Source: an uncultured Eubacteriales bacterium (GTDB lineage: Bacteria; Bacillota; Clostridia; Christensenellales; UBA1242). Taken from it: a DNA stretch of 64,000 nt. This document shows positions 3,124-53,610 of this stretch, piece by piece (position 1 is the first letter of the stretch; each line of letters begins with the position of its first letter). Under the pieces are notes generated by a model that was given only the letters and a program-made list of their open reading frames with translations, did no database searches and was not told where the DNA came from. A program made the position numbers and the translations under genes. The stretch is taken from contig CAQIDI010000003.1 of NCBI GenBank assembly GCA_948806215.1, forward strand, positions 27,948-91,947, read 5' to 3'.

Positions 3124-3167
3124 AAATTTATTTTCCTTTATTTTAGTTTAGTTTTTTAAAACTTATC

Positions 3168-13159: not shown

Positions 13160-16100
13160 TTATTCATAATAAGCATATAGGACTAAATCTGAAGTAATTT
13201 CTTCGTTATCAAAATTAAATATATAATCATCATAATTTCCTGTGAAACCAGGATCATACATAATTTTATACCAACCAACAAACGTTTTTCCTTCAGGTAT
13301 TGGAGGGGCTTGAAGCTCAGGATATTGAGTAATATCTATTTTATCTCCCTTCTTAACTTGGATAATTATTTCTGAAGGGAAAGGCATACCATCAATATCA
13401 ACAAAATTGACATTATAAACAGGTTTATCCCATAAAGCATAAATAATTAGATCGTTTCTAATTTTTGTTTGCTCAAAATCAAACAATACAAATTCTCCCT
13501 CTGAATTCCTAATATACCAATTATTAAATGTATTTTCGCTATCGCTTGGATCAACTGGGTTATCAGTTGGTCTACTTGCACTCTGACCAAATCCAACTTT
13601 TTGACTTATAAATGCATCGCCTGTTAATGAATTACCTAAGCTATCAACAAATGATACTGTATAAGTTGTGTCGGCAGGTTCCCAATAGCCATAAATAAAT
13701 ATATTTGACGTAATCTTAGTATTTTCAAAATCAAACAATAATTTATCATAATCAAAACCAGATAGACTATTATTCTTTCTTTCTGAATACCAACCACGGA
13801 ATAACATACTTGTATCCGCTGGATTTGCTATTTCACCAGGATTAACAACTGTGCTATTCCAATCAACAATAATCGGATTAGCCATACCGAAATCTTCTTC
13901 ATCAATTTTTGTACCATTTGCATCAACAAAAGTAACACTAAATGTTTTTATTTCAAAGTGTGCGTAAATATTAATATGATCCATTACAACAAATGCATCT
14001 TCATTTCCACTAAATATAAATTGTTCGTTTCCAGTTGCTGTTGTAAACCAACCAACAAAATTGTATCCTTCTTTTACTGGATCGGTTGGTCTTGAAACAT
14101 TTCCACCAGTATGAACAATCTGATTTGGAACATCGCTTAACAATATACCTTCTTCATCTACAAATCTAACTGTAAATGGAATAGTAACAAAATATTGATA
14201 AATAGATATATCCGCATTAACTGTTAATGGGAATGTTATTTTATATGTTGAATATGGTTTTGTGTCGCCTGAAGCTAAATATTGACTATAAGATTTAGTG
14301 TACCAGCCATCAAACTTATATGAAGGTTTAGTAGGCATTGTAGGCAAATCTAATTTTGCACCTTTACTTAATACTAAAACTCCATTAGTACCATAATTTT
14401 TATCGATAGTAACACCATCTTCTTTATAATATGTTACATTTACCACAGAAGAACTAAACACTGGGTATAAAATTAAATCAGAATTTATTGGAGTATTCCA
14501 ATTATACATTATAAAATTATCACCATCTTTTATTGCCCAATGTTGGAATGCCATACTAGGTTTAGTTGGCGAAGAAGCAGGTTCAGAAATAACTCCACCA
14601 AAATTTACTTTCTGAGTTAAGAAAACTCCTGCATCATCAGTACTATCATTCATAAATGTTACAACAGCTTGTGACCAGTGTGCATAAATAGTAATATTTG
14701 CGTTTATTTCATATTTCTTAAAGTCAAATTTAACAATTTTCCAAAAATCATTAAAACTATTAACTGGTTTACCGTCTGCATCTGTAATATCATTATTCTT
14801 ATTATTTTCATAATATTTATATGCTTCGCCATATGGCATTGTGTACCAACCACCAAAACTTAATCCTGGTTTTGTAGGATTATTTGGCTCTGGAACATTA
14901 TCTCCCTCATCTAAAGTTTGATCTGGAATATTACCAGTACCACCTTGTAAATCAAATTTTACAACATAAACACCGGCTCTTTGCCAAATTGCATATAAAT
15001 TTAAATCTCCAGTTACAGGTTTGCTAAAGTCATATTCAAGTCCATCAGAAGTTTTCCAACCAACTAATTCATATTTTGATCTATAAACATCGCTAATATA
15101 TACAGCTGTTCCACCTTCAACAACTCTTTTTGTTTGAACAGCATTAGGATTTACACTGTCAAAATATTTTACAGTATAAGATTTTACACCTGGAAATGGT
15201 TCAGAATCTGAACCTATATAATTAGTAGATCTCCCTAATGAAACGGTAAATCCATAATCGCCACCAATCCATAAAAATCCTCCTGAATAACACATATTTT
15301 GTAATGTTAAATCATCTTTGGTTGAAAGGTTATATCCACCCTTAAACATCGTAGCACTTTCATTATAAATTTCACCTTCACCATTACCATTAGGATTTGC
15401 GATACGACTATAGTATCTTACACCACATTGTTTTCCTGTAAATCCACCAACACTATCCGCATTACCTTTGCCATAATATTCGGTATACTGATCCACAAAT
15501 TTTGTACTTTTAGCATTATTACTCTGATTATTATTTTTATCAGTATATGGTTTAAGATAAAATCCATTATCTCTTGAATCCAAATTTCCAAAAATTGTTC
15601 CAAATTTAAATGGGCCACTAAAGCCATTATAATAACCAATTCTATATCCACTGTAAACATCACTAGCAGTTCTTGAACTATATCCATCATATGAATCCAT
15701 ATTATATGTTAAATACATTGAATCATAACTTGAAACATAGCCACCAAAACCTTTTGATAAATTATTGTTTAGTTCACCATAGGTTGCATAACCAACTATT
15801 CCGCCGCAACCATACGATAAATCATAACTTAATGCTCCAGCAACACTATTTGTATCAGCAGTATTACTATTTATTTTTGAATAACTAGAATAACCAACAA
15901 TTCCACCTACCGCATCGTTACCTACTACAATGAAATTATTGGTGTTACCAACAACTTCAGAACTATTTTCTGCATATCCAGTAATTCCACCAACATAGGA
16001 TGAAGAAACTTCTACTCTACCTGTATTTATACTATTATTTATACTAGAGTGATTAATTTTACCAACAATACCACCCACATAATTAGTACCTCTTATATTT

Positions 16101-19100
16101 TTTGCAGAGTTATTAGCACTTATTTTAGAATTATTAGTAGCATAACCAACTATTCCACCAATATTAGACCCAGCAAAAATATTTTGAGTGTTTGAGCAAT
16201 TCTTATTAGCTGTTGTTCCTTCATATCCAATAGTTGTATCATTAGCAACACCAACTATTCCACCAATATTTGTTCCAGTAGAACTAGAAACCCTGGATGG
16301 ATTTGTGAAGTTGCCATTTTTCGGTTCATAGTTGATATAAGCGGTATTTGTACATTTTGATATACGAGTATTATCAAATGTATTACCTATTAACCCACCA
16401 ATATTACTTGAATTATAAGATAGTATAAAGCCTTTTGATATACAACTTACAACCTCACTATTAAATAAATTAGCAGCTAAAGTTCCGAAATTATTATTAG
16501 GATAATAAATAGTTGTATCGTTACCAGCATTTATATTATTTAATTTAACATTATGGCCAGCTATTAATAATGCTCCGACACCATCATCAAATCTATTTGA
16601 TGTATTGCTACCATTATTAACAAAAGTAATATTTTGAATAGTATTGTTGTAAGCATAGCCTAAAATAGATTTTGCGCCATTATTACCACTAGCAACACTA
16701 ACACTTGTTCCAGTAACATCTACTTTAATAGGATAAGCTGTATTACTTGCTAAAGTTTTAAATCCATTACTTAAAGATAAAGTTTGTAAATAAATTGGTT
16801 TAATAACTTTAGAAGTTGAACTATTCATAAAGTTTGTTTTAATTAAGAAATTAACATAATTAAATTTTGCCTCAGTGTCAATTCTAAATTGTCCATTAAC
16901 TATAGATGGCGGTGTCATAGTTAAAGAAGTATCCTTATAACTATAATTTAAAGTTATATTGCTACCATAACTCCAATAAGGATTTTGTTCAATAATATTT
17001 TTGTATGTTACATTAATTTTATTCGAGTCATCACCATATGAAAAAGCAGTACTAGTATATGAATTTACAGAATTGAAAACTGCAGTATAAGGTTTAGCTA
17101 AGTTGATTGCACCTAATGGATTACCACTTGTTGTTACACATAAGCCAAACATACTCGCATCAAAACCATTAGGTAAACTATATGCAATTCCGTTAGTAGC
17201 AGCAGCTGTGTTCAATACATTATTAATATAAACATCTGTGTTTTCTATTTTAGCAACAATTCCTGCTGAATTATCTGCACTAACACTTCCATTATTAACA
17301 GCTAATGTAATATTACCATTAGTAGTTCCAGCAATACCGCCAACATATGCACTATTGTAACCAATAATCTTACCACTATTTGTAACAGAAGTTATTATTG
17401 ATTTGTTATCTGCCACATAACCAACAATACCACCAACATTATCATATCCAGAAACATTGCCAGTATTATTGCTGTTTAGATTACCTGAACAATCAACAGT
17501 AACACCATTAATAATTTTTCCAACTAAACCACCAACATTAATATTCCCTCTAACTGTTTTTATGTTATAGTCGTCTTTTATAATTACATTTCCATAAACT
17601 AATCCAGCTATACCACCAAAATTTTCTGGTTTATCAGTATCTTCTTTGTAGTTAGCAGAGTATTGAACAGCTGCTCTATTAGTGTTTGTCGAAATATTTA
17701 ATGGCTCTGTTTTATTATTTCTATAATATCCAACAATACCACCAACATTAGAATAACCACCAACAAATGTTTTATCTTCTTCTGGATGCTCTGGGTTTCC
17801 ATTAGCACAATTAATAATTGAAGTATCAACCGCATAACCAACTATTGTTCCAATATTTTCGCCACCATAAATTATACCTGATTCAACCGTTAAATTTTGA
17901 ATTGTTGCATTAACAGCATATCCAACAAGTCCCAACGAATCATTTGTTAACGCTTCTACACCAGTAATAGTATTAGTATCATCAATTGCATAAACCGAAG
18001 TTGACATAACGTTTTCTAAACGAATATCGCCATTTCCAATTAATATTCCCTTAAAAGCTTCATTATCGCTTAATGAAGAATAATAACCTATAGGAGTCCA
18101 AACCATACCACCAAAATTCATAGATCCATTAATTTTAATTGTCCAACCGTTAAAGTTATCATAATCATATCCTTGTTCATCCACACCTCCATTATTAACA
18201 ACATAAGCAATCCAAGCAAGTTGTTGAGGTCCGTAAACAGGTGTTTTTCTATCTATATTATTAACTGTTTCAACCATAAACTTATATGGGTGAGGGTTTA
18301 TAGTAATAGTTTTTGTAGATTTATTTATCGTACCAGGGGTAAATTTAACAACTGTAGTTCCATCTTTTATTTCACCAATGTCTTCATCTGGTCTTATATA
18401 ATTTTTAATCCAATATTCAACCTTTGTAGAGAATGTAGGATATTCTCCAGGCATTGTTCTTACCCAAGTACTAATCCAATCAAATCCATCAAGCATACCA
18501 GTTCCTAACTTAACTATTGTTATAACCTGATCACAGGTTCCACCAAACATAAAAGATACTACACTTGCTAACATTGCATTAGTATCATAATAATCCACAG
18601 CATAAACATTATTTGATTTAGTTTGTGTATTTTCATTACCCATAAATAATGAATTTTTACTATAAGTTGATAACATTGATGTCATAGAGGTTAATTTTTC
18701 TTTTCCTGATAACTCACCAATATAATAAACTTGGTCAGCAAAAACAGCATTATTAGTAGCACTTGTTCCACCGCAATAAGTATACGCTAAACCACTTGTG
18801 TTATTACCATAAACAGAAGAATTAACATAAACTTTATAAATAATCAATTTATTATTGCTTGTGTTAGCAAATGTTACTTTTCCAATCAAGCCACTAGCAG
18901 TTTGAGTAGCGTAAATATTACTATTTTCAACTCCAACCTTACTAGTAAAATATGTTTGTTGTGATTTATTTACATAAACAAATCCAGCAAGAGTTCCTGT
19001 AGAACTTATTCCATTATTTTTAGAAACTGAAATGAAGTTACTATCTTTAATAAGAATATCATTTGCAAATGTATCAGCAAAATTTTGACTCTCATCTATT

Positions 19101-22100
19101 GCAGTATCTTTTGGGACTTCAACAGATCCAAATAGACCAACATTTCTATTTACTCCAATTGCTGATAATCCAACGAATGAATATTTATTTCCAGATATTT
19201 TTCCAGCAAATAAATTAGAATATGTGCCTTCTCCAACTATTGAAGATTTTAAGTATTTTGCATTATTTCCGCTTCCAGTTACTAAATTCTCATCAGAAAT
19301 ATTATCAGCACCAAATCCGATTGGCGTCCAAAGTTTATTATAGAAATTTAATGAAACTTCTTTGCTAGGATCTGTTACTGCAGGTAATGTTAAAACAATA
19401 TTATTATAATTTAATAAGTTATGAGTTGTTTTTATTTTTAAACCAAACTCATATTTTTCAGTGGTTAAACCTATTCCATAACCACTAACAGTTTCTCTAT
19501 AATAATCGTTTAAACTTACCTCTGCATTGCTTATATCAACAACTTTATATCCATAATTAGAGTAAGCTGCAACTGCTGCTAAGTCTTCTTCTTCCCTTAT
19601 TAAAATTGAAGAACTATTATAAATATTTTTTAAATAATAATCATAGTTATTTAACTTAGCATAGTTATTAGAACCAGTATTGGTTTCGTTAACGATATTA
19701 TCGTTTGCCCAATAATATTCATCGTCCATTCTTTCGTTTCTTAAATCAGATTTTAAATCAATTTGTAGCATTGGCAAGCCAAACCTAAATTTAGTTTGAT
19801 TAGCAGTTTCTTGATCTGGAATAATTATTGTCCAAATCTTATCAAAGTCAAATTGATTACCATTTTCTTTTAAGAAATATGATAAATTAAACTTTCCATT
19901 ATTGTTATTATACTTACTAACAGAATGAGTAACATTATTTTTATCATCAACGGTAAATTCGTTACAAGTTCCATTATCAGAATAAATTTTTATGGTTTTA
20001 TTATTTGCACCACTTGTAGTTAAACTATTTTTTACAATTCCATCGTAATTATTGATTGTATTTCCAACAATACTTGCATTATTTATAATACCACTTGAAT
20101 CATTTGTAATAGCAGCGTTTGATTTTAATGTATCAATAAGTCCAGTATTATTTGCAATAGCAAAACCTGATCCATCAACATTAAATATAATTCCTGCATT
20201 GTGTGAGTTAGTACCAGCAATTAAAGAATTGCCATCTTTTGTATTAACTTTTGTTATAAAACCTTCATTTTCTTTAATTTTGAAACCAGTTGTAGTTAAA
20301 CCGTATAATATAGACTTATTATCAACTGTTGTAACACTTGCACCTAATCCGGCTCCGTTTTTAAAGTAATAGGTCTTACCTGCAATATTTCCACCAGTAT
20401 AATTGCTTGTAAAAATACTTGAAATAGCATCTGCAATACCATTTGCTGGTTTTACTTTTAAACCTGATGCTTGTAAATCAGCAACACGTTTAAAGTTAAT
20501 TAAATTTAGTTCGTCAATATTTTCATTAACAACGTATCCGCTTGTGATTTGACCTATTGAATTTCCATCACTTTCATTTTTAAATTCAACACCTTTAACT
20601 TCGGTTCCAAGTTTATCGGTTATTCCTTCTTCAATCCATTTTAAAAGTGGATAAGAATTATCGCTTATATTCCAATATTCTTTTGACCAAGCTTTTAAAT
20701 CGCTTTTAAATGTATCACTACTACCAAATAACATTTGTTCTGTGTTTAAAGCAGTTCCAAAATTATTTGAATATGGAACAAAATCTTGATTGTAATAGTT
20801 TTCAATAAGTTTAATATTTGTTGAATTTTTATAACTATTATAACTATCACTGGTTTGATTATAATTTGCACTATCAGTTGTGGTTATTCCACCAACAACT
20901 CCACCTTTCTTGGTGCTAAAGTAAACATAATCGCCAACATAGTTACCAATGCTGTAGTTATTATACATTTCAAATAAACTTGAAATACCCACAACATCTC
21001 TTGTTTTATAAGCATAGTTAATAGATCCAATAATTAAACCATCGTTGGTTTGTGGTCCTATTAATACTGCTTCATCTTGAATATAACCGGTAGTATAGTT
21101 ATTTTGAATTAAAACTTTACTATAGTTTTTATTAAGATCACTATTTGAAACTTTATTAGCATAGTCAATATCAGCAACACCAACCAATCCACCAAGATTG
21201 TAGCGAATATACTCAGGATATCCTTTTCCATTAATTTCTATATTACTGTTAGAAACACTCTCTGATATTTCCCCATTATATATAGTACCTATCAAACCAC
21301 CAATATTTTTAGTTGTTTTTATGCCACTACTTGGAGTATTTTTTGAAGTTGACTTAATTAAATCAACATTAGCAACTACTCTGTTAACTTTTCCAATAAC
21401 AGGAGTTATGTTAGTTAAATCGTAGTGCATATCAACAATACCTATAGCACCGCCAACACTTGTTAGTTTTGAAGTATCACTCTCAGATGGCTCAACATTA
21501 ATACTATTAATATCTGCTAAAGAATTGCTTATGTTAGAACAGTTACTAGCAACGCCAACTAAGCCACCAACAGTAGTTTTACTAATACCATTAACATCAA
21601 CTTTTATAGAATTGAAATTAGTTGTTAGGTTTCTAATATCAAAGTTATTAACCTTACCAGCAACACCACCAATATTGGTTTCAGCAGTATCTCCACCTGT
21701 TGTGTTGTTAACAGTTATAAACGAATTATCAGTACTTGATTCAACTAAAATATTTTCTAATCCAAGAACATTAATATCTCCGCCTAATGCTCCAACTGCA
21801 CCACCAACATTAAGAACATATTTATAGTTGTTTGAAACATTAACATTAATATGTGATGCATCTTTTATTGAGTTACCAAAAACATATGTGTTCGAAACAG
21901 AACCATCTTCGTTTTCTTGCTCACCAACATAAGAAGTTAAACTAGCAGAATTTGTATAACCAACTAAGCCACCAACGCTAATATTATTAAAGCTATCATT
22001 AGGTTTAATATTGGCATTAATTTGTACTTTTGTTGCATTAATTCCAGCAATTCCTAAGCTAGACATTCCTCTTGGATTAACAACACCAAATGCTCCGCCA

Positions 22101-35696: not shown

Positions 35697-35951
35697 TTAA
35701 AAATATTTGTTTTAACATTTTTCGATAGTTTTTTTAAAATTAAAAATAAAAAAAATTATAACTAAATTTTATTAATTTTTATAATTTTTTATGGTTAAAT
35801 TAACCATATTTTTTTAATATTTTTTATTGTTTTTTTATGTTAAATTTACATAAATTTTATATAATTTTGTGAGTTTAATTTAATAATTATAAAGTAAATA
35901 TTTAATGTTTTTTTAACCGAAAAATGTAAAAATCTTGCAATAAATTGCAAC

Positions 35952-35981
35952 AAAAAAAGTGCTAAATTTAGCACTTTTTTT
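35952..35981 (-). terminator. Rho-independent terminator after giant gene 2
   Basis: A7-GUGCUAAAUUUAGCAC-U7, a perfect palindrome lying 4 nt after the TAA stop (35986..35988). Confidence 0.8.
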
Positions 35982-35985
35982 GTTG

Positions 35986-44900: not shown

Positions 44901-47900
44901 TGCCATTTTCGTTTAATGCTTTTATTTCTGCTTTTGTAACTAACAAGTTAGCAACATCAAGAGTAACATTTTTAACAACAGTATTATTTGATATTGTTGT
45001 AAATAATCCACAATTAATATCTGAGCCACCTGTGAAGCTTGAAGTATTAAAGTTATTAATTGTTATAATATGTCCATTTCCATCAAGGCTACTAAAGTTA
45101 GCAGCAAATGGAACATAATCGTATAGGTTGATATCGTTAACTAAAATAAAGTGACCAGAAGTTTCGTTTTGTAACGCCATAAATTCTGTTACATTCGAAA
45201 TTGGATTTGGATGATCGTATGTTGAGTTATCTTTAATTATTAAAGTAAAGAAAAATTCTTGTTCGTAAACTCTATAACCAATAACATCTCCAGAACAAAG
45301 TGTTGGAATACCATATTCGTTATAATAGTAGTTTATTCTAGCACCTATAACATCAGAAGAACTTACTCGTTTTGCATTAATTGCAAAATAATGTGTGTTG
45401 TTTAAATCGTTTAATGTTTTGTTTAAGAAGCTAAAGTTATCGTATTTATTACTAAAGTTTAATAACTCGTCGGTGTTACCATTTCTAATATACCAGTTAT
45501 TAATAAAATCGTTTGTGCCGTTAAAGTTTAATCTTCCCGATGCTTCTTGTGCAAAACTATTTATTTTTGTTGATATATCCGAATTACCATTATATTTTGC
45601 ATCAACTATCAAATTCAAAATTTGATTTGTTCCATTTAGCATTTCTAATGTGTTACCAGAAGCACTTTTAATTGCACCTTGCTGCCTAATGCTATTAACA
45701 ATATATTCAACAACATTCAATGTAACTGTGCTATCTTTTGTTTCTTTTATGCCATTAATAAATCTTGAAACTCTTGCAATAACTGTTATTGTGTCGCCTG
45801 CAATAGCATTATCTTTTGCCACAATATAATACTTATTTGTATTAACATCATAATCTAAAACAACTAACGAGTTGTTTTTGCCAGATGTAACATCAAATTC
45901 AACATCGCCTTCAAAGTTGTTGGCTTCAACAGTTAATTCAACTTTTCCGCCAATGTTAATTAACGAGTTATGCTCTCCGTTAACTGTTAGATTAATGCTT
46001 GGTAGCGGTTGAACTGTTAAAGTTATATCCTTAGAATAAACTTCTTGCTTTTGACCAGCAACATTTTTATAAGCTTTTGCTGTGAATACAATGTTTGAGT
46101 TTATTGGTGCATTTTGATCTAGCCCTATTTGAACATAATAGTTACCATTATAAATTATGCTATTATTTGCAAGCATACTTTGATTAACAAGTTTAACCCC
46201 AATAAAGCCCGGCAAATATTCGGTGTTACCCGATACCGATTGATAGTTAATTACATAACCATTTTCGCCACCCTGCATAACAGCTAACTTTTGATTAAAA
46301 CTAACATAATTTTTATATTGCTCTGTTGTTGTTAATTCAACATATTCGGCTTCGTTAAATTCTGGGAATAATTCTATTTTTAAAAGTCCCATTCTTGAAG
46401 GAACAATAAAGTTTGTTTCAACTTCTTGCGGATTAAATTCGGCATCTGATCCGCTACCTGAAGTTTCTGAGTTGGCATAGAATTTTAACTTAATATCACT
46501 AACCTTTTTAGGAACAATTTTTAAATTAAATTGTTTATTTAATTCGATATTAGTTGAAGGAGAAAAACTTAACAAATACGAAATATCGTTTAAGTTATAA
46601 GTAACTCCGCCAGTTCTATTTTTATATGCTTCGGTATTAAAGCTCAATCTTAAATTAAATATTGCTTTAACTTTTTGTAAAACACCATCTTTATAAATTT
46701 TTTCGGCTGTAATGTTATTTATTTCAACATTAATTAAACTTGAGTTAGTTCCGTTATTTTCGTCAAGTAGTGAAACACTGCCAACAGTTTGATTTGTTAC
46801 AGTATCTTTAATTAACATAATAACATCTTCGTTAACAACAACTTCTTCTCCTATTAAAGAAAAGTTGCTTGTTACAACACTAACATTTAGCTCAATGTTT
46901 TGTGATGGTTCGATTGTTGCATTTGTTTTATCGATTTCTAAGCTTTCGGCTTTAGGTTTTACATTAAATAAATATTCTTTAGTTAAATCATTAATTAAAA
47001 GACAATTATTAATGGTTACATCGCCATTTGAAGAAACCAAAGTTTCACCAAAATTTTGATTTGTTAGTTTTATAAATGGTGTTAATTCGTAACTAATAAT
47101 TCCTTCGCTAACACCTGTTAAATTAAACTCTGCTAAAGAACTAAATATGTAGGTTTTGCCATTTTCTAAAACTTGATCGTTTAATTTTGCACTTCCTGTG
47201 TTAGTAGAACTAACCACTAATTTAACTCCAACATTTGGATTAACAGTATAATAACCATTATATCCGCCAGCAATAGAAGTTTCTAAATCTTCCACGCCAG
47301 AATTAATAACTATTTCAACATCTCGGTTAATAGCAGTTGCGTAATAATTGGAAGTGTTGTCAATAAATTGAGTGTGTGTAATATCATCCATTAATAAATT
47401 TGCATCGTTAGTTAAGTTTTTAGATAGATACAAATTATAATCGCTAATACCACTAACAACTAAAATTGTTATTTCATCAAAAATAGAAACATCTAGTTTG
47501 CTTGAAACTCTTAATGTAACTTCGCCTTCGGCTAAGGTTTCTAGAACCAAATCGTTAAGAATTCTTACAACATTAACATTTGAACTTGTAATAATTAAAT
47601 CGCTAGCATAGTCTGCCTGTATACCAACGCTTTCTAAGTTTGGAAGGTCTAACATTATTTGAGCCATATTAACATATTGCGTGCTAAAGTCTTCTTCGCT
47701 TAACAACAATTTATATTTGTTAACATTTTTATAATTCTTACCAGAAATATATTGGTTATTAAATAGTACCACGTGGCTTTCGTCTTGCTTAATATAGCTT
47801 AAGTTACTAAAGCTTTGGTTAATATTTAAAATGTTTGTATTAATGTGAGTTGGTAAAACTTTAAATAAAATTTCACCACTATTGTGTTTATACTTAAATA

Positions 47901-50900
47901 ACACAGGGTATCCATTATTTAAAGTGTAAATATCTCCTAAATAATGTAACCAAGTGTAAGGTATATAGTCTGCAGCTTCGGTGTTAACCGACACAATATT
48001 AAACGCATCGGTTTCAGAGTTTATAAATGATTCGGTTTTAGTTAAATCAGTTTTTATTGTTTCTTCAACTGAACTTACGCTTAGTGAAGTTGAACTAACC
48101 GAAATTTCTTCAACTCTTGTTTCGGTTATAGATAAAGTTTTTGCCAATAATTTTGTGCTGTTTGTAAATGCAACTCCACCATAATTATTAGATCCAATAT
48201 AGCTTAGGCTAACATTTACCATATAACCAAATTCTTTATAAAATTCAAAATTGTTCTTTTTAACAATTGTTGTTGTTATTGTTCCTGCAGTTTGAATGCC
48301 TGTGTCTTCGTCCTCGGCATAATCTTCACTCTTAACAATATCGGTTGATATGTCTTCACGGTTTAACTCTAAACTATTAGTTTCTGTTCCAACAAATGCA
48401 CCAACATTATCGTAAACTGTGTAGGTAATAATTGTTTCAAGATAGTTAGTATCAATAACATTATCAGTAACTTCGGTTTGCACTCTTATTAACGAATTTC
48501 CTTCCCCGGATAAAATAATAGTGCCATCGTTTTCTACTAAACTACCAATTTTATATTCGATTGTTGTTCCAACGTGAGTTAAATTCAAATCTGATTTTGT
48601 TGTAACTTGTGTTGATTTTGGTTCGTTATTTTTAATATTTCCTGTTACGTAACTATTAACAATTGTTGTTTGTTCGTTTTTGTTAACTGCGTTTGTTGAT
48701 AAATTTGTTCCACCAACCAAACCACCAGCATAAACGTTTCCGGTTAATTTTTCAAAAGTTAAGTTAATATCTGCGCTAAAGTAGCTGTTAAATATTCCAT
48801 TGGCAAAAGTGCCATTAAACATATATTCATCAAATTCTTCAGAACCTTCTGATAATGTTTTTAAAGTTAAATCTAAATTAATATCGCCAGTTAAAATAAT
48901 TCCGTAATTTGCTTGTTGGTTGCTTATTTCAGAATTGTTCAAATATCCTACTAAACCACCAACATATTTATTTTCGATGTCGGCATTATTTTTTAAAGCA
49001 ATATTTCCATAGTATTGTTCGTTATTAATACCGCTGTTATTAAAGTAACTTCTAACATAGCTATAGTAAATGTTAATGTTGTTACCTTCGCCCACAAGTC
49101 CGCCAATATTTTTCTCGCCTATTAAACTTAATGTGTTAGCACCTGTTTGACCAGCATTAGCAAATTCAACAACTGCACTATCAATAATGCTATGTTCTAA
49201 AAATCCAACAAGACCACCAACATTTGTTTTGGCCATTAAATTAGGAGCAACTGTTATATCGTTTAAGTAAGTTGAGTTAGCATAACCAAACGCCCCACCA
49301 ACATTTGCAGGAAGCAACTTTTTATTAGCATCCATACTTGTTATTGTTGCACTAACATTTAGGTTATTATAGCTACTACCCATATCACGGGAATAAACGC
49401 TAACATCTGGTTGAACAGGATTTTCGTTTTCGTTTTTAAAATCGTAACCATTAACAACGGTTGCAGTTTTAGTTTCGCTAAAAGCAATTTCGGTTATGTT
49501 ATGTTTTGCATAAGTATAAACCGAACCAGCAATACCACCAATGTTAACATTTAAATCAGTTTCGCCAGAAGTTCCAATGTGGTTAATTACAACTTCGCTA
49601 TTAACCTTGCTAGAACTTGAACTGGTTGTGCTAATTGGTAAATAAGAAATAACACCTGTAACTTTTCTTGTTATATCAATATCGCCAGCAAGCACCATAT
49701 TGGTAATATCGTAATTTTCGTAAGTAAAGCTTTCGCCAACCATACCACCAATGTTTAAATTTTTTGCTTCGCTTGTAACATTTATTACACCAGCAATACG
49801 GCTATTTAAAATTGAGCCATAGTTGCGACCTGCAATAACACCAATATCAATTTTGTTTTTGTTATTAGCATTTAAAATTTTAATATCAAATTTAACGCCT
49901 TCAAAAATTAAATTTTCAATTTCGGCGGTTTCGGATAATTCTTCAAATAAACCAATGTTGTATTCTTTATCGGAAGAAACATCCATTTGTTTTGTTAATT
50001 CAAAATCGTTAATATAATTTTGACGAGAATAACTTATACCATTAATTGAGTAACTAAATAAGCCACTAAGTCCTCCGTTAAACTTTTTAAATGGAGGCAA
50101 AGTTTCGCCTATGCTTTCTAATGCACGCAAACTAATAGTATCAGTTAAAACATAATAGTAAGAGTTATTACCCAAGTTAATATCTCTACCAATTTCTAAA
50201 AATTCTTCTGCATTAGATATTTCAAAAGGATACTCTTTTGTTCCATTTGCAACTCTAATAGGAATGTGGTTAACCGTACTAGGAGTTGCAATTCCTGTTT
50301 CTTCGTTAAATGTATAGCTATCTTCCGAAGCAAAAGTTAAAATTGTTCTACCTGCGTTAACATAAGGTTTAACAACAATTTTATTCGAAATAATACGATT
50401 ATTGCTATCAACACCACTAACTATTTTAGCAACGCTAGTATCAGCAATAAATGCAATTAAGTTTTTGTTAAATGCATCGCTTGGTTCTACATCAAAAACA
50501 ATTTCTTTTCCTTCGCCATAAATTTCATTACCAGAAATTTGATAGTCACGAGAATCAAAATAAACGCCTTTTTCTTTATCTACACTTACAATAATGTTTT
50601 GCACTTTTTTAGCATACTTAACATTAACGTTAACATTTGATGCAATAATTGGCTTGTTATATTGTTGCAAAGTTGCAGAAACAACTGCTGTTAAATTGCC
50701 TTCTTTGTAAATTTGATTAAAGAAAAGATCTGGTGAAAATGAAATATCATTATCGTGAACTAAATCGAATTTAGATTTTATGCCATCGGTATTTGAGTTA
50801 GGATTATATGCATTTTTATCAATTTTTGCATAAACATAACATTTGTTATTAGCCTTATCAACTTCTAATTCAACAAAATCGCCAACAGTAAATTCAACAT

Positions 50901-53610
50901 CAATAATTTCGTTGCCGCGTTTTCCTTTATAGCTTTTAATAACTTGATCTTTGTTTAACAATGTGAAATTTATGTTTGGTTTTGTTGCTTCATCAGAAGA
51001 AACAGCATTTGTTGGATATAGGCTTAAGTTTAATTCTACTTTGCTTGCACCTAAGTTAAAATATCCAACCGAAGTGCTTTCGTAAATTGTAGAATCAATA
51101 GGATTTAATTGAATGGAAGTTATTGGTTTAATAATAGTTAGTTTTAAAACCTTTGTCATAGTTACAACATTACCTATATTATCGTAACCAGTTAAAACTA
51201 TTCTAACATCAACCGGAGCTTCGGTTTTAATGTTTCCTGTTTTAATAAAAGGAGTTCTAATTCCGTTAATATATTTATACTCAACCGAATAATAACTTCT
51301 ATCGGCAATAACAGTTACATTTTGGTTATAATTAATTGCTCGCAAAGTTTGATCGTTACCACTTGTTTGAACAACATAGTTATAAATGTTTAATCCAACA
51401 CTTGAATTAACTGCAACAGTAACAGCATTTTGAGTTGAGTAAGTTGCGCTTTTGTTGTAGATGGTTGTATCTTCAACTTCTTCACTAGGAATAATAGTTA
51501 TTTTACCGTTATCGTTAACACCGATAAAATATTCTGTTTTATTACTTGCATCGTAAATAGCACCACGGCTTTCTTCTGCTTCAAAAATTTCTAATCTAAC
51601 ACTTTGTTGGTTAATGCCTTGATCAACATAATCGTAAACAATAGGAACAAAAATTTCTACTCTAATGTTTTTTGTTATGTTATTTTTTGTTTTAATAACC
51701 AAATCAAAGTTAGATTCTACTGGTTGCAAAATTGGTGTTAAAACCAAACGGTTAACAAAACCATCTTCAACTTGTCTATATTCTAAAGTGAAATAATCAT
51801 TATCAAAAACATCAAAGTTAGGGTCGTATTCTCCGTTAACTGCAATAGCTCTAATGCTTGAAATAATTGTGTTTAAATTAACTTTTTGGTCACCAATAGT
51901 GCCAATAACAATTTCATAAAGTTCTCCTTCTTCAGGGTCGTTAATTCCCAAAGCCTTACCTGTTATTGCATTAATTTTTATTGGAGATGTTATTTGGAAC
52001 CCAACATCGGTTATTCCAGCAAGAGCAACAAGTGGAACTTCGGAAGTTACTGTGTAGGTTTTATAACCTTTAGTAAGCGATGTTGGTGCCATAGTGTAAG
52101 AATACTCTAACACTAACTTAGGGCAATTTTTTTGAGTTGGGTCGGTTATTAAAGTTTGCAAATCGCTAAAGCTATAGTTATGTTTTATGTAAAGAGTTGT
52201 TCCTCCGTTTAATTCGGTTGTTGGAGTTACTAGGCTATTGTTTCTTAAATAAATTTCAAAGCCATCTCTTCCATTAACCTGAGGTGCATTAATAACTTTT
52301 GCATTAATTTTATAACTTGTTGAGTTTGGATTAATTTGTAAGGTTAATGGTGTTCCAACAATGTTTCCACCATAAACGTTATAGATTGATGCAAAACTAT
52401 TGGTAACGTTTTCGCCATCTTCGCCATAAACATCAATTTCTTCACCAAATTCTTTAACAGTTACTCTAACTTTAATTGTTATTGTGAACAAGCCTTCAAA
52501 ACCAACACGATCGATGTTTATATCAAATGTTTCAACATTGTTTTCCATATTTTTAACTTGTTGATTAATTTGATAGGTTTTATATGGGTATGTATCGGCA
52601 ACTCCGTTATAGTTATATCTATCGTTTTCAGAAACTAACGATACTAAACCAATAACATCCGATTTTGCGTTATCTAAGCTGGTTGAAATTCTGTATTGTT
52701 TATCGGTTACAAATTCGGAACCAACTTGAATTTTTAAGTTACGAGAAAATATAAAAGGAATTGTTGAATTTTTTCCAAGAATAATATCATAAACATTTCC
52801 GTTAGAAGGAACTAATACTATTGGTTGCGAATTTAGGTCGGAATTAGTGCTTAAAACAACCTGCGACATATCAATAACATTAATTACATAAATCTTAACA
52901 GTTTGGGTTTTTATTTGATTGTTATAGTTACTAACAGCATAAACATTAACATATTGCAAACCATTGCTATCGTCAATTGGATAATTAGAAGCGTTTTTAG
53001 AAATCAACTTACCATTTTCAATTTTTGCATAACTTGTTTCGGTAACATTGCCTTGTTCGTTTGTTACAACTGCATTTGTTGAATCATCGATAAAAAACGA
53101 AACTTCGGTTTGGTTTGTTCCAACTGGCATAAAGGTTAAATATTTACCAAGTTCAACTTCGCCACCAAATTTAACAGCTTTGTTGCTAGTTACAAATCCA
53201 ATGCTTTTAACAGGAACATAAACAGTAACATTTATTTCTGCTCTAAGGTTGCCTTCTTGGGTGTTAACATAAATTATTCCCCTTCCTGGTTTTTGAGCTT
53301 TCAAATTAAATAATGTTTTATTGCCATCCTTTGAAACATCTTCAATACTAACAATATCGTTAACACCATTTGTGCCATACTGAGCAAAGGTAACATCGGT
53401 TGAAACACCTTTTCCTGCTCCCGATACGGTTGCCATTAAATATTCGGAATTAATTAATCCTTCTTGTGGCTCGCCTTCATCGGTTAAATATAATACTACA
53501 TCGGTTTTAGAAACAGATATAGAAAAATTTTTGTATGGGTCATTACACCCAAACAACAACATAACTGATCCTAAAAGAGCAATTAATAACGCACTAATTT
53601 TTTTTGCCAT
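35986..53610 (-). CDS. Giant surface lipoprotein 2 (5,874 aa): Ig-like arrays, GLUG-like beta-helix units and a unique non-repetitive C-terminal domain
   Basis: Uninterrupted ORF. AGGAG SD 7 nt upstream of the ATG at 53610. The signal peptide is MAKKISALLIALLGSVMLLFGC. The module order is collinear with giant 1. It has its own promoter and terminator. Confidence 0.9.
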   Translation of the reverse strand: MAKKISALLIALLGSVMLLFGCNDPYKNFSISVSKTDVVLYLTDEGEPQEGLINSEYLMATVSGAGKGVSTDVTFAQYGTNGVNDIVSIEDVSKDGNKTLFNLKAQKPGRGIIYVNTQEGNLRAEINVTVYVPVKSIGFVTSNKAVKFGGEVELGKYLTFMPVGTNQTEVSFFIDDSTNAVVTNEQGNVTETSYAKIENGKLISKNASNYPIDDSNGLQYVNVYAVSNYNNQIKTQTVKIYVINVIDMSQVVLSTNSDLNSQPIVLVPSNGNVYDIILGKNSTIPFIFSRNLKIQVGSEFVTDKQYRISTSLDNAKSDVIGLVSLVSENDRYNYNGVADTYPYKTYQINQQVKNMENNVETFDINIDRVGFEGLFTITIKVRVTVKEFGEEIDVYGEDGENVTNSFASIYNVYGGNIVGTPLTLQINPNSTSYKINAKVINAPQVNGRDGFEIYLRNNSLVTPTTELNGGTTLYIKHNYSFSDLQTLITDPTQKNCPKLVLEYSYTMAPTSLTKGYKTYTVTSEVPLVALAGITDVGFQITSPIKINAITGKALGINDPEEGELYEIVIGTIGDQKVNLNTIISSIRAIAVNGEYDPNFDVFDNDYFTLEYRQVEDGFVNRLVLTPILQPVESNFDLVIKTKNNITKNIRVEIFVPIVYDYVDQGINQQSVRLEIFEAEESRGAIYDASNKTEYFIGVNDNGKITIIPSEEVEDTTIYNKSATYSTQNAVTVAVNSSVGLNIYNYVVQTSGNDQTLRAINYNQNVTVIADRSYYSVEYKYINGIRTPFIKTGNIKTEAPVDVRIVLTGYDNIGNVVTMTKVLKLTIIKPITSIQLNPIDSTIYESTSVGYFNLGASKVELNLSLYPTNAVSSDEATKPNINFTLLNKDQVIKSYKGKRGNEIIDVEFTVGDFVELEVDKANNKCYVYAKIDKNAYNPNSNTDGIKSKFDLVHDNDISFSPDLFFNQIYKEGNLTAVVSATLQQYNKPIIASNVNVNVKYAKKVQNIIVSVDKEKGVYFDSRDYQISGNEIYGEGKEIVFDVEPSDAFNKNLIAFIADTSVAKIVSGVDSNNRIISNKIVVKPYVNAGRTILTFASEDSYTFNEETGIATPSTVNHIPIRVANGTKEYPFEISNAEEFLEIGRDINLGNNSYYYVLTDTISLRALESIGETLPPFKKFNGGLSGLFSYSINGISYSRQNYINDFELTKQMDVSSDKEYNIGLFEELSETAEIENLIFEGVKFDIKILNANNKNKIDIGVIAGRNYGSILNSRIAGVINVTSEAKNLNIGGMVGESFTYENYDITNMVLAGDIDITRKVTGVISYLPISTTSSSSSKVNSEVVINHIGTSGETDLNVNIGGIAGSVYTYAKHNITEIAFSETKTATVVNGYDFKNENENPVQPDVSVYSRDMGSSYNNLNVSATITSMDANKKLLPANVGGAFGYANSTYLNDITVAPNLMAKTNVGGLVGFLEHSIIDSAVVEFANAGQTGANTLSLIGEKNIGGLVGEGNNINIYYSYVRSYFNNSGINNEQYYGNIALKNNADIENKYVGGLVGYLNNSEISNQQANYGIILTGDINLDLTLKTLSEGSEEFDEYMFNGTFANGIFNSYFSADINLTFEKLTGNVYAGGLVGGTNLSTNAVNKNEQTTIVNSYVTGNIKNNEPKSTQVTTKSDLNLTHVGTTIEYKIGSLVENDGTIILSGEGNSLIRVQTEVTDNVIDTNYLETIITYTVYDNVGAFVGTETNSLELNREDISTDIVKSEDYAEDEDTGIQTAGTITTTIVKKNNFEFYKEFGYMVNVSLSYIGSNNYGGVAFTNSTKLLAKTLSITETRVEEISVSSTSLSVSSVEETIKTDLTKTESFINSETDAFNIVSVNTEAADYIPYTWLHYLGDIYTLNNGYPVLFKYKHNSGEILFKVLPTHINTNILNINQSFSNLSYIKQDESHVVLFNNQYISGKNYKNVNKYKLLLSEEDFSTQYVNMAQIMLDLPNLESVGIQADYASDLIITSSNVNVVRILNDLVLETLAEGEVTLRVSSKLDVSIFDEITILVVSGISDYNLYLSKNLTNDANLLMDDITHTQFIDNTSNYYATAINRDVEIVINSGVEDLETSIAGGYNGYYTVNPNVGVKLVVSSTNTGSAKLNDQVLENGKTYIFSSLAEFNLTGVSEGIISYELTPFIKLTNQNFGETLVSSNGDVTINNCLLINDLTKEYLFNVKPKAESLEIDKTNATIEPSQNIELNVSVVTSNFSLIGEEVVVNEDVIMLIKDTVTNQTVGSVSLLDENNGTNSSLINVEINNITAEKIYKDGVLQKVKAIFNLRLSFNTEAYKNRTGGVTYNLNDISYLLSFSPSTNIELNKQFNLKIVPKKVSDIKLKFYANSETSGSGSDAEFNPQEVETNFIVPSRMGLLKIELFPEFNEAEYVELTTTEQYKNYVSFNQKLAVMQGGENGYVINYQSVSGNTEYLPGFIGVKLVNQSMLANNSIIYNGNYYVQIGLDQNAPINSNIVFTAKAYKNVAGQKQEVYSKDITLTVQPLPSINLTVNGEHNSLINIGGKVELTVEANNFEGDVEFDVTSGKNNSLVVLDYDVNTNKYYIVAKDNAIAGDTITVIARVSRFINGIKETKDSTVTLNVVEYIVNSIRQQGAIKSASGNTLEMLNGTNQILNLIVDAKYNGNSDISTKINSFAQEASGRLNFNGTNDFINNWYIRNGNTDELLNFSNKYDNFSFLNKTLNDLNNTHYFAINAKRVSSSDVIGARINYYYNEYGIPTLCSGDVIGYRVYEQEFFFTLIIKDNSTYDHPNPISNVTEFMALQNETSGHFILVNDINLYDYVPFAANFSSLDGNGHIITINNFNTSSFTGGSDINCGLFTTISNNTVVKNVTLDVANLLVTKAEIKALNENGTTDADGNVTRNAKINLSNINSFNFGMLAGTNNGSLTNIKVINTKQTNANDSSSKYLFVYSTIGYISNGTLVDGNVGGIVGVNAGTISNSYIGLNDTYYSNQSNSEDLKALASEGSTRIQTYPFFIVGGKSIGAFVNKNAGIIANSYNLGVGLINSSTIFSGSKTAGFVVSNSSNGYIFNSMVEGIKTNSYRASSEIYLEATGNIGGFIYENSGRVENAYSNIAIKTNSGGSGGFVYDNLATGRVTNAYSTSPNAFNSKAHGQFTGINSKNKFNNAGELTSCFYLIYENEVANEDEPALAIRGKKVENSSSDEENKNPEGSKDNPFRYTGSFNGFSFATGTESNNIWTLGTDENFGPQLINIKKFNTFSHRTLTDTREENNTTIYDYIYDDDCQYGAMGTTNQVINPLLVNTAEEFVRFIINNSKTVPYNGDELYLFGDNEGVYYIRLINDLNFSEITLNNLIVDNKRISDIIFGGVLDGNGMSITGIKLTDLKQDSVHENFGLFSQVGLSDAQKEATGIGSEASQEKRINPSIQNVNITINGFAATQSVKVGAIAGSMYDTSLINVSLSAGENVEIVGRNLVGGFAGLIVNKPGIIINNVTTNNITVTASHRSNSVSEVSTLSGYGVALNNGNKIAFNSYNKDSRDSVEVLRNYSYAGSIAGVIDANNRPTEHSQGKTSVSIPEGDVKNHRSTPEENSISKITVQGGGFIAAEQAGGMFGYVGKNTHIKNSSYLLGVVTKDNGSSETVTPRVQQIRGYNYAGGIVGENYGMLEQVTVQHIADWQPDIDKDFVNNKTNKNVVNNLFGSEASVAIGGIAGFSDQSIIVDSFVKVGVINEKAKVAGGVIGIATRTNYLSHVYATGNVSASTVIGGLVGLYNKTGMHIIGTEDELKVTYVANNDSSSQTVEILPSAFRLSFDFAISANNWGEDVSAKLTENLQGYYDNGDGGYYNFSPRMPEIGNQAFSYGRLNIVKNEGTVTSVSKTETSVTDGDLNNITANNNLKYKYYIGSLVGKVEETTNADIKTNKIINNAALTTSVNAARKVSNVTTGFGKYYEFASVISTTLNSGKITKNNLRTPDGILDGFEDPGASNAEEFMNKFFNEALSALPTPEELNTGKQVVFDVVDYTNNIGNQFHLNSIFGQTGKNSNMFGGFAWDVVSLADIKPDSGSNVWMIDENLMPAYIIGIFSNFNEIKSVADLNTQIRIATSTKNQFYLLSENETADLADNKAYNFTKDSSSTYQSNENLFSNAFEGTLIGNPNAGKNPLIVVTQLNNLSNIFNSIASATIQNVDFKIIIPDGYTSQLSKRDAMQTSFGLLAKTVKGSVLSNINVEIVFQGVNTNTSQVINNKFRNSFNNIGLLFGSVEDSTLNNINVKLTFEKGNATASPNITTDISTNIEDVKPDATKNLNFGILVGSGLRSILSNINIMSSNGNNNENFISLNENQKSGIVNVGTLAGLLKDCSVQNINQVQPNGDYNINGEIKVNNTFEGGANFDGGYNIGGLVGNLDASTMVNANYAGRVVVGNANNNSVSTKLNVGGIVGYANSSNLNVVMNNYYNTLNNTSPELKIINKNINVYNATTNLQTTVGGVAGFINNSTITGNNNNNITSGNASNINATVNGGTLDVGGIIGYARNSNNRNGILRAYNQGYIRAFNNSTTASNLNVGGVAGTIIGGKYEDVFNIGDIAIKTNNNYSVGGLFGKTSLSTSEKEGMINNFISYGDIYVNASVPNTNKFIGGVVGSITSNAIRFSNGYTLTRVFNAKNANDDDLFISNNGTFATNEFINGIGHIQSFDVAMFDKVFYIHEFFPYTNTKNLLNGTTEIGKVIISAKSDSVKFGGISYGNLIENDSSSNLLLAYLQTGNNSGNFSRLETTIKIPYLQNVIPVNVVYREMEANNIASSGNKLNPEIISSASNQTSVRKDILANKYYIINESGTSTLNKNYEFSFNDNTFNGVLINKSRKGVPSVSGFSGKVNNGILANFYVKVTNTTNLTGALLKVNNGNIINVVTTGYLELTSAPISDNGTLAMFVQTNYSNIVASGSMIMLAYNGNIKANSYSGFVTQNISNSTKSGSAYIKDCYSTSSFINTSATSNFVLNAPSAGLAYSNDGVIETSYYAGSYNPEKVGKNALVYAGSGTLINCYYDYDALSTEKDSSKYNLSQTVSQPYDKARYVLTSDMLNSLFTDYALRTQTIVTSFENASVKYNYGYPTIINGIQINTLNNKNRFVIWHKGQINNLNKYDITGVNYDIVNNIDMNGVNKGISSNTIDIDFINPQDELKHNIYGNGYTISNLKIKSQSANRVGWFIKIEGKEISNLTIKNAEVTNTASDIGDRVGETYGVGIIAGFASGITLNDVKVIGTSTITATDSNNVGGLIGYAKNGRILLNDSTTNVMVTVDANNGLNVGGVVGFAYNTEITSAKYSGRVTAKKQVGGIAGYVASSAKLKNCTVVSSSSIIANNKNDISIATTIDSGIFKNNVSSKISIINNSIGSGSFAGGIVGRTSADSNALIEDCYPIGSSNGKVTISANSYSGGIVGGLFSTARINYTVQTNIQYLDVVNNNNGIGAIALGGMVGYMSDSTTLENAGVGRVSINNSTIAYSGINLNFAVGGIVGFQNGGTIRYADSKNNVIYGSRLVGGAIGYQNRGSLANCEVYNNNLYYKSNKEMDEYDGDGKNLYAGANSDYNSVLTSIKSNPYDSYLGCVTINSKRSLNGYFMGTNTDNRLDEQRGYFAVEYGGLDARASKIDHGGTFKLYFGFITGGTSSVASQSNIIVNNGCINGITDKGTLYAVNRFWDDWSGKNQWKWYLEKRIIQRTLNAYQNNGIFAFNNGTDDYNKFREYNKSVAEQNCSTHMLNVLTYIAAGYSIAYENGYEPISYIEAGANGTEGMAALFESQMKKCSVVPNKAEGLAILKNLYTNYAYQGMEYVSYQKISNVRSQEIHWRGGLWENMYPTDLNKHGKRFGEVSYTNI
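35989..36900 (-). other. Giant 2: C-terminal domain of about 300 aa and unknown function (approximate start)
   Basis: It starts after ...NNLYYKSNKEMDEYDG. The sequence is non-repetitive and rich in Trp, Tyr and Cys (RFWDDWSGKNQWKWYLEKR, NCSTHML, KKCSVVP, HWRGGLWENMYP). Giant 1 has no counterpart for its last roughly 220 aa. Confidence 0.45.
36900..45215 (-). other. Giant 2: run of about four to five GLUG-like beta-helix units (approximate bounds)
   Basis: N-cap-like modules lie near nt 45215 (NPISNVTEFMAL..ILVNDINLYDYVPF..LDGNGHIITINNF), 43700 (NPLLVNTAEEFVRF...GGVLDGNGMSITGIKL), 41340 and 38240 (..IYGNGYTISNLKI). Confidence 0.55.
45220..47860 (-). other. Giant 2: second Ig-like / beta-sandwich array (approximate bounds)
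   Basis: Examples are ITSSNVNVVRILNDLVLETLAEGEVTLRVSS and TLTVQPLPSINLTVNGEHNSLINIGGKVELTVEANNFEGDVEFDV. The second aligns with giant 1 TLSVKTTPTLNLHVNGRDSAAVARGTSLSFSADHEGIEGEVDFS. Confidence 0.45.
47870..50250 (-). other. Giant 2: first GLUG-like beta-helix unit (approximate bounds)
   Basis: Starts with YPFEISNAEEFLEIGRDINLGNNSYYYVLTDTISL. It contains IGGMVGE, IGGIAGS, VGGAFGY, VGGLVGF, IGGLVGE, VGGLVGY and AGGLVGG turns, and ends with W...NNGYPVLF. Confidence 0.55.
50260..53540 (-). other. Giant 2: N-terminal Ig-like (Big_2-like) domain array (approximate bounds)
   Basis: Examples are VKSIGFVTSNKAVKFGGEVELGKYLTFMPVGTNQTEVSFFIDD and ITSIQLNPIDSTIYE...LSLYPTNAV, plus ...FDVEPSDAFNKNLIAFIADTSVAKIV. 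Confidence 0.5.
53545..53610 (-). other. Lipoprotein signal peptide and lipobox of giant 2 (L-L-F-G-C, Cys codon 53547..53545)
   Basis: MAKKISALLIALLGSVMLLFG|CNDP. As in giant 1, the mature N-terminus begins C-N-D. Confidence 0.75.

Follow-up and report, generated by a model that had tools for sequence, protein, structure and literature searches.

Tandem giant lipobox proteins encoded beside rpoB in uncultured gut Clostridia are collinear, strongly diverged paralogues

A 64,000-nt stretch of the genome of an uncultured Eubacteriales bacterium (GenBank assembly GCA_948806215.1, contig CAQIDI010000003.1, positions 27,948 to 91,947 of the forward strand; hereafter, the window) carries two giant open reading frames (ORFs), which we call A and B, arranged head to tail on the minus strand upstream of rpoB. 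We find that the two encoded proteins are collinear through most of their length, and their genes very probably arose as tandem duplicates of one ancestral giant lipoprotein gene, before the radiation of the clade that carries them. An earlier note, made from the letters of the window, had described the pair as collinear but strongly diverged paralogues of ancient tandem origin, with a shared order of immunoglobulin (Ig)-like arrays and beta-helix units. The two ORFs, whose lengths count the stop, are as follows.

13160..35617, minus strand: giant A, 7,485 amino acids (aa) including the stop
35986..53610, minus strand: giant B, 5,874 aa including the stop, upstream of A on the coding strand

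Collinearity and architecture of the two giants

Residues 1–4951 of A align to residues 1–4716 of B module by module, with identities of 26–36% and Z scores of 12–38 against shuffled sequences. BLASTP of A against B returned collinear high-scoring segment pairs at A18–185/B1–172, A860–1340/B1012–1477, A2483–3091/B2340–2945 (28% identity, E 4e-46), and A3217–4025/B3034–3832 (27% identity, E 1e-47); self-comparison of the whole proteins gave no off-diagonal pairs. A phmmer dot plot in 200-aa windows contained one main diagonal, running from the N terminus to about A4025/B3832, with windows reaching 72 bits. Off-diagonal self matches within the arrays were absent or below 10 bits, and GLUG-rich stretches cross-matched weakly between A and B. 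Profiles built from orthologs sharpened the diagonal, which stood far above any off-diagonal or self match. The paralogy proposed in the earlier note is thus borne out by one extended diagonal in protein dot plots, and the low overall identity that it had remarked on by the pairwise alignments of individual modules. In these global alignments, each module was set against 30 composition-preserving shuffles.

A1–964 with B1–1121, lipobox and array 1: 26% identity, Z 12.5
A965–1955 with B1122–1935, helix unit 1: 30% identity, Z 13.7
A1956–2938 with B1936–2789, array 2: 28% identity, Z 20.8
A2939–3544 with B2790–3304, helix unit 2: 36% identity, Z 21
A3545–4260 with B3305–4130, helix unit 3: 31% identity, Z 38

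Beyond these modules, hhalign matched A4252–4951 to B4082–4716 (unit 4) with a probability of 99.4, and A6213–6643 to B5099–5573 (the last helix unit) with a probability of 99.0 (E 2.5e-18). A hidden Markov model of the head of the helix units (NPxPI..EF....ILVNDL...SLDGNG.xITI) matched A at residues 965, 2939, 3545, and 4261 and B at residues 1122, 2790, 3305, and 5137, and the spacing of the heads is common to every ortholog. The motif NNG[LY]PVL, singled out earlier as the end of the first helix unit, occurs exactly once in each giant, at equivalent positions. Every module of A pairs best with the one in the corresponding position of B, which argues for common descent and not for shared repeat composition.

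All four peptides that the earlier note had quoted as alignable pairs were located, at A2666, B2529, A6667, and B5652. The first pair lies on the diagonal: in the phmmer window A2614–2788/B2474–2641, A2666 projects to about B2526, within 3 residues of B2529. The second pair, SGPFKFGTIFG in A and GGTFKLYFGFITG in B, cannot serve as an example, falling in C-terminal tails between which no homology was detected (Z −1.3, no hhalign match); each motif is conserved only among the nearest orthologs of its own family, and the two cannot be aligned. At the DNA level, the best match between the genes is 112 nt at 73% identity, on the diagonal, in agreement with the earlier note, which had seen no long identical stretches; exact words are shared up to a length of 20 nt, compared with 15–17 nt in codon shuffles.

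The common module order that had been claimed for the entire proteins held for A1–4951/B1–4716 and for the last helix unit, and did not hold for A4952–6212 or the tails. The collinear share amounts to about 72% of A and 88% of B, and homology does not extend over the full length; the duplicated, still collinear part is smaller than the whole of either giant. Positional alignment of A4952–6212 with B4717–5098 gave a Z score of 1.6 and no collinear counterpart. In the profile dot plot, A5300–5700 matched B3250–3750, as a further copy of unit 3, and A5800–6130 matched the GLUG repeats of unit 4 off the diagonal. Since parts of A4952–6212 match these regions, A carries additional helix units, and the stretch looks like an internal module duplication that followed the gene duplication.

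The C termini differ in kind. Pfam family PF09479 (Flg_new, the Listeria-Bacteroides repeat) matched A with 152 bits in five stretches, at roughly A6815–7485, and was not found in B. The B tail, which had no Pfam or PDB sequence match, is 39.5% identical in the nearest ortholog, compared with 54% for the protein overall, and can be aligned only in part with the next orthologs. Both N termini carry the lipobox followed by CND that the earlier note had read, in the contexts LSLLAG|CNDN in A and VMLLFG|CNDP in B. In family alignments, the lipobox Cys and the following Tyr are invariant, and a lipobox-like motif falls within the first 50 residues of 69 of the 93 full-length family members. The modules resolved by these comparisons are listed below.

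35501..35617, minus strand: A1–39, signal peptide and lipobox LLAG|C followed by ND, read from the translation
53545..53610, minus strand: B1–22, signal peptide and lipobox LLFG|C followed by ND, read from the translation
32726..35500, minus strand: A module 1 (40–964), first Ig-like array (AlphaFold2 model of A38–520, Foldseek, alignment)
50248..53544, minus strand: B module 1 (23–1121), first Ig-like array, collinear with A module 1
29753..32725, minus strand: A module 2 (965–1955), putative first beta-helix unit, ending NNGLPVL (unit head at A965, GLUG-like turns at A1148–1660)
47806..50247, minus strand: B module 2 (1122–1935), putative first beta-helix unit, ending NNGYPVL (unit head at B1122)
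26804..29752, minus strand: A module 3 (1956–2938), second beta-rich (Ig-like) array, containing the first quoted peptide (alignment)
45244..47805, minus strand: B module 3 (1936–2789), second beta-rich array, collinear with A
24986..26803, minus strand: A module 4 (2939–3544), beta-helix unit 2, head NPDPI..EF..ILVNDL..SLDGNGYVITI (AlphaFold2, Foldseek)
43699..45243, minus strand: B module 4 (2790–3304), beta-helix unit 2, 32% identical to A with many invariant motif residues (family alignments)
20765..24985, minus strand: A3545–4951, beta-helix units 3 (head at A3545, Z 38) and 4 (head at A4261, hhalign)
39463..43698, minus strand: B3305–4716, beta-helix units 3 and 4 (unit head, alignment, hhalign)
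16982..20764, minus strand: A4952–6212, A-specific extra beta-helix units, no collinear partner in B (profile dot plot)
38317..39462, minus strand: B4717–5098, short linker region with no significant on-diagonal match to A
15689..16981, minus strand: A6213–6643, last beta-helix unit (hhalign)
36892..38316, minus strand: B5099–5573, last beta-helix unit, head at B5137 (hhalign)
13163..15688, minus strand: A6644–7485, tail with a Tyr/Gly-rich segment and then Listeria-Bacteroides (Flg_new) repeats (PF09479, composition)
35989..36891, minus strand: B5574–5874, non-repetitive, fast-evolving tail without a known domain

Pfam covers less than 10% of A and none of B. The C-terminal half of A scored 27.5 bits with the Pfam Glug family (cut-off, 20.5), although no single stretch passed by itself, and B gave no match at E ≤ 0.01. 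Single-sequence Pfam searches of both arrays and of the Tyr/Gly segment of A returned nothing, as did family profiles of both arrays searched against the PDB. Fold prediction was more informative. In the AlphaFold2 model of A38–520 (predicted local distance difference test score, pLDDT, 86.8), four to five beta-sandwich domains follow one another in a string, and the best Foldseek matches to this model are Ig-domain strings of the surface-layer (S-layer) proteins SbsC, SbsB, and Sap, of cadherins, of DSCAM, and of titin. The model of A2760–3545, built from an 18-sequence alignment (pLDDT 81, predicted template modeling score 0.79), consists of a beta-rich domain, in which the first 180 residues form a beta-sandwich-like fold and one long helix, followed by a long right-handed parallel beta-helix. 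The top Foldseek matches to this beta-helix are the Streptococcus pneumoniae IgA1 protease (6xja_P, E 1.5e-4) and BACOVA_03286 (3n6z, E 3.4e-4, TMt 0.48); pectate-lyase-like enzymes, phage tailspikes, and the binding region of a Lactobacillus reuteri serine-rich repeat protein (SRRP) take the next ranks. For the two modeled parts, the predictions agree with the labels of Ig-like array and beta-helix unit that had been given from sequence.

Age of the duplication and the wider family

We scanned one genome per GTDB species and found 25 loci in metagenome-assembled genomes (MAGs) of uncultured Clostridia from animal and human guts, several of them in records labeled Christensenellales or Christensenella. 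Four contigs held both core matches, 17–18.5 kb apart with the B-like match upstream, the same spacing as in the window. At eight related MAG loci, a B-type ORF of 4,600–5,970 aa is followed after 230–420 bp by the start of a second giant ORF, whose N terminus is closer to A than to B at seven of the eight (the exception, L024, scored higher against B); orf158 and the genes for the M23 peptidase, acpP, and spoIIID lie upstream at these same loci, and at L008 rpoB follows the A-type gene.

The family is small: a profile of the A/B core, run exhaustively with HMMER against 1.84 billion representatives, matched only 283 proteins at E ≤ 0.001, most of which, among the matches listed, are 3,000–7,800 aa long. 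A word-sharing homolog search with A2483–4025 yielded 8,000 candidates, none of them significant, and was probably saturated by low-complexity words. The nearest ortholog of A (P0001, 7,417 aa) is 65% identical from end to end and that of B (P0002, 5,875 aa) 54%. A neighbor-joining tree was computed from 611 columns of the conserved core in 123 sequences, with 100 bootstraps. It places 20 representatives in an A clade and 33 in a separate B clade, each with support of 100, and mean core identity was 52% within the A clade, 46% within the B clade, and 33.5% between them. The separation of the clades indicates that the duplication predates the radiation of these species. Together with the B-then-A pair and its neighbors in related MAGs, these two clades uphold the ancient tandem duplication put forward in the earlier note. 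Flg_new repeats are present in 8 of the 18 A-clade representatives, in 0 of 29 from the B clade, and in 0 of 49 other members; judged from sequence, the Flg_new tail is a late gain in one A sub-clade.

Selection was gauged from nonsynonymous (dN) and synonymous (dS) substitution rates, estimated by the Nei-Gojobori method against the nearest orthologous DNA fragments, which are 52–65% identical at the protein level. For A compared with L001, dN was 0.26 and dS 1.05 (omega about 0.25), and for B compared with L021, dN was 0.38 and dS 1.24 (omega about 0.30); with dS near saturation, these omega values are rough upper estimates. Such ratios and the intact orthologs of matching length speak for selection on both copies, as had been argued from their integrity. 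Conservation of the intact pair across many species points to a strong and lasting need for both. Sub-functionalisation of A and B, also raised in the earlier note, is plausible; the differing tails, the extra units of A, and the promoter-like and terminator-like sites that each gene has of its own bear on it.

By the history that these comparisons make very probable, both copies were passed on vertically at one fixed chromosomal site, where B and then A lie between M23 peptidase, acpP, and spoIIID on one side and rpoB and rpoC on the other. The modules of the duplicated core stayed in the order lipobox, Ig-like array, beta-helix unit, second array, three beta-helix units, and terminal beta-helix unit, and purifying but relaxed selection let the sequences drift to 26–36% identity. 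A later gained the helix units of A4952–6212, and one A sub-clade the Listeria-Bacteroides repeat tail; B retained a short, fast-evolving tail.

More distant relatives occupy the same position. At L026 (GCA_050178795.1, JBFXFT010000002.1), P0077 (3,261 aa) lies downstream of the 5,021-aa giant P0053 and directly upstream of rpoB-rpoC, in a genome whose RpoB is 63% identical to that of the window. At L028, a 5,615-aa giant precedes P0061 (3,410 aa). At L029, P0089 is a single giant directly upstream of rpoB, in a genome whose RpoB is 59% identical to that of the window; it may represent the state before duplication or the loss of one copy. These loci would fit an ancestor of about 3,400 aa that sat beside rpoB as a single gene and was duplicated and then enlarged. 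The singleton of L029 (9609..19934, 3,441 aa) is preceded by a DUF87/TraG-like ATPase. The L026 contig, on which the giant pair, rpoB, a HicB-like ORF, and L7Ae-rpsL-rpsG follow in the same order, is labeled 'Spirochaetales bacterium' by NCBI, and this label looks doubtful.

Full-text literature searches found no description of this family, and public records name its members only 'hypothetical protein' or, for one NCBI member, 'GLUG motif-containing protein'. Giant modular surface proteins and tandem paralogues are familiar already; what is new is the alternation of Ig arrays and GLUG helices with a predicted lipid anchor, the strict conservation of the pair beside rpoB, and the near-total lack of annotation. 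The family is rare, almost entirely unannotated, and drawn from gut Clostridia that are hard to culture. In a small genome, the 40 kb that its two genes occupy in the window may amount to a few percent. The series spoIIID, B, A, rpoB offers a marker locus for the clade, and the pair offers a natural example of the growth of giant modular genes by whole-gene duplication, insertion of helix units, and late capture of a tail of binding repeats.

Possible function and competing explanations

A surface-fibre or adhesin function for A and B is, on their sequences and fold models, about evenly balanced between yes and no. It is the function that we favor, in a form in which the two would be long, lipid-anchored surface fibres with a common shaft and differing tips. 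The lipobox predicts export by the Sec/lipoprotein route and acylation on its Cys, which would keep the N terminus tethered on the outer side of the cytoplasmic membrane. From there, the first Ig-like array would reach through the wall as a stalk, and the alternation of Ig arrays with rigid right-handed beta-helices would make a fibre of about 100 nm or more, if each Ig domain spans about 4 nm and each helix rung about 0.5 nm. Binding would probably take place at the helix faces and the distal tip, with polysaccharides or proteins (host mucus, dietary fibre, or other cells, for example) as ligands. Known adhesins, tailspikes, and IgA1 protease use such beta-helices to bind or cut polysaccharides and proteins, and Flg_new repeats are binding modules.

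Known systems resemble the giants in part. The likeness to GLUG helix proteins (PF07581; 6xja and 3n6z) lies in the predicted right-handed parallel beta-helix of A2939–3545; 3n6z is the Bacteroides ovatus 'putative IgA1 protease', and the N-terminal domain of 6xja is a GLUG helix. Unlike these structures, the giants have at least five helix units interleaved with Ig-like arrays in proteins of 5,900–7,500 aa, and unlike IgA1 protease they lack an M26 zinc-protease domain and an LPXTG anchor. Fibrillar adhesins of Gram-positive bacteria, such as the L. reuteri SRRP (5ny0) and S. pneumoniae PfbA (4mr0), are likewise elongated surface proteins, whose binding regions the predicted helix resembles (Foldseek ranks 5 and 50), and attachment is, by analogy, a likely shared role. 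Such adhesins bear a C-terminal LPXTG sortase signal, whereas the giants have an N-terminal lipobox, no serine-rich repeats, and no accessory Sec system seen nearby; they are also far larger, with several helices, and form a pair conserved at a housekeeping locus rather than a strain-variable one. S-layer proteins (Geobacillus SbsB and SbsC, Bacillus anthracis Sap and EA1) gave the best Foldseek matches to the N-terminal array of A (E 2e-13 to 1e-10), but TM-scores were about 0.2 and cadherins and titin did equally well, so this likeness is one of generic Ig-string geometry.

Clostridia giants of 10,000–30,000 aa with Listeria-Bacteroides repeats have been surveyed by West-Roberts et al. (bioRxiv 10.1101/2023.11.21.568195). 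Like A and B, those proteins come from gut Clostridia, are very large and predicted to be extracellular, and include Listeria-Bacteroides repeats; the survey is without the present architecture, the lipobox, the GLUG-helix/Ig alternation, the tandem pair, and the rpoB-adjacent locus.

Three assignments to known classes were rejected. Pfam found no Peptidase_M26 or other protease family in A or B, which removes an IgA1/Zmp metalloprotease (M26), and no SLH or CWB2 domain in either, which removes an S-layer protein. A sortase-anchored adhesin was discarded for want of LPXTG, the C termini being ...DLVLYAYYE and ...GEVSYTNI.

Several observations count against an ancient duplicate pair that now serves as surface fibres. 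Deep nodes that join the two clades and some 70 further family members have bootstrap values of 3–16%; dS near saturation leaves the dN/dS ratios rough; the fold models span A38–520 and A2760–3545 only; the beta-helix fold is common to polysaccharide lyases and hydrolases, so an enzymatic role of the helices is possible; and P0053 and P0077, from one genome, are 42% identical to each other, compared with 38% to A or B. This last relation makes several duplications or gene conversion possible in the wider family, and it speaks for a history in which independent tandem duplications or recurrent gene conversion acted at the same locus and the distant pairs upstream of rpoB record other events. 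The downstream partners at L026 and L028 are, moreover, only about 3,300–3,400 aa long, and the single 3,441-aa giant at L029 and the poorly supported deep nodes point the same way. We nonetheless regard such a history as rather unlikely: the downstream partners lean slightly to the A clade (38.4 compared with 34.0 and 36.0 compared with 34.1), the 5,615-aa upstream giant at L028 appears by its length to be P0052, inside the B clade (an exact match is unconfirmed), and the result for A and B in the window's own clade is untouched. A recent, lineage-specific duplication followed by very fast divergence, with its age overestimated, draws on the giants evolving much faster than the genes around them (at L014, the A-type and B-type orthologs are 37–41% identical to the window, where acpP is 83% and the M23 peptidase 63% identical); it is very hard to reconcile with A and B orthologs that are separate in many species-level MAGs, with their fully supported clades, and with the B-then-A order everywhere. 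Least probable of all, and close to negligible, is convergence in repeat composition (GLUG turns and Ig-like domains) without collinear descent. Both giants are rich in Asn, Ser, Gly, Val, Ile, and Thr, of which the abundance of Asn, Ser, and Gly could be cited for it, and weak GLUG-rich matches do occur off the diagonal (for example, A6376–6576/B5307–5546 and A1137–1394/B5298–5581), but the continuous diagonal scores several-fold above off-diagonal and self matches, the non-repetitive arrays align best at their equivalent positions, and the diagonal persists with the arrays masked; the Z scores of 12–38 come from shuffles that preserve composition, and NNG[LY]PVL, unique in each protein, and the unit heads sit at equivalent positions.

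Two other functions were weighed against attachment by surface fibres. As contact-dependent polymorphic toxins of the WapA/CdiA kind, the giants would be fibres that deliver a variable C-terminal toxin, an idea that draws on the tail of B, which evolves faster than the rest of the protein and comes after a motif conserved in near orthologs ([VI][IM]EYGG.D...F.L.FGF.AG). We rejected it as highly improbable, since neither the AT-rich 368-nt spacer downstream of B nor the DNA following A contains a candidate immunity ORF, and near orthologs still have homologous tails (39.5%, then 29–33%) in place of swapped ones; searches with A and B also gave no toxin, Rhs, LXG, or PT-domain matches. Less improbable, yet still distinctly unlikely, is a stalk carrying polysaccharide-degrading lyases or hydrolases in place of passive binders. 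After the IgA1-protease-type domains, the Foldseek matches to the helix include GH28, GH110, PL6, fucoidan lyase, and phage tailspike depolymerases, but these are weak (E 0.008–0.5, TM below 0.25), no CAZy-type Pfam family matched, and the best matches (the 6xja N-terminal helix and 3n6z) are non-catalytic GLUG helices. Returning to the surface-fibre reading, a broader version of it can be put forward tentatively and, with its parts taken jointly, is rather unlikely. The B/A pair would be a core, vertically inherited envelope structure of an order-level clade of uncultured gut Clostridia and not part of an accessory adhesin set; the main fibres or coat of the cell surface would be built from the co-evolving giants, perhaps paired laterally along their collinear cores; the pair would have stood next to rpoBC since lineages diverged to about 60% RpoB identity; and the single ancestor of about 3,400 aa would persist as a singleton upstream of rpoB in some lineages.

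Locus organization and neighboring genes

The giants sit among chromosomal housekeeping genes, in a Bacillota genome of low GC content. On the downstream side of A lie rpoB, rpoC, a HicB-like small ORF, rpsL, rpsG, and fusA; upstream of B are a SpoIIID-family regulator, acpP, and an M23 peptidase, with mfd further away. The sites around the two genes are as follows.

53724..53752, minus strand: promoter-like site upstream of B, TTGACT-17-TATAAT, a consensus match only
35948..35985, minus strand: terminator-like hairpin directly after the B stop, 17-bp stem and T run (1 found, 0.1 expected)
35618..35985: spacer between the giants, 368 nt, very AT-rich, without a credible ORF
35668..35696, minus strand: promoter-like site upstream of A, TTGACA-17-TATACT, a consensus match only
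35575, minus strand: Met15, probable true start of A, a second ATG preceded by AAGGA
13118..13152, minus strand: terminator-like hairpin directly after the A stop

The spacer between the giants thus houses the terminator-like hairpin of B and the promoter-like site of A. Because each gene has a promoter-like site and a strong terminator-like site of its own, A and B are probably transcribed separately. The first ATG of A has no ribosome-binding site, and Met15 matches the start of the nearest ortholog (MKNIRKSL...); with the AAGGA in front of it, this indicates that the real A protein is probably 14 residues shorter than the ORF.

The SpoIIID-family transcription regulator (53817..54080, minus strand; Pfam, 96 bits) lies directly upstream of B and is syntenic in the eight related MAG loci. 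The HicB-like small ORF with an antitoxin fold (4380..4658, minus strand) that separates rpoC from rpsL recurs at the corresponding position in the distant relative L026 (28521..28778), an unusual conserved interruption of a core operon. A few kilobases upstream of the giants are two envelope-related neighbors, a polysaccharide-deacetylase-domain protein (57064..58470, plus strand) and a flippase-like membrane protein (58481..59851, minus strand).

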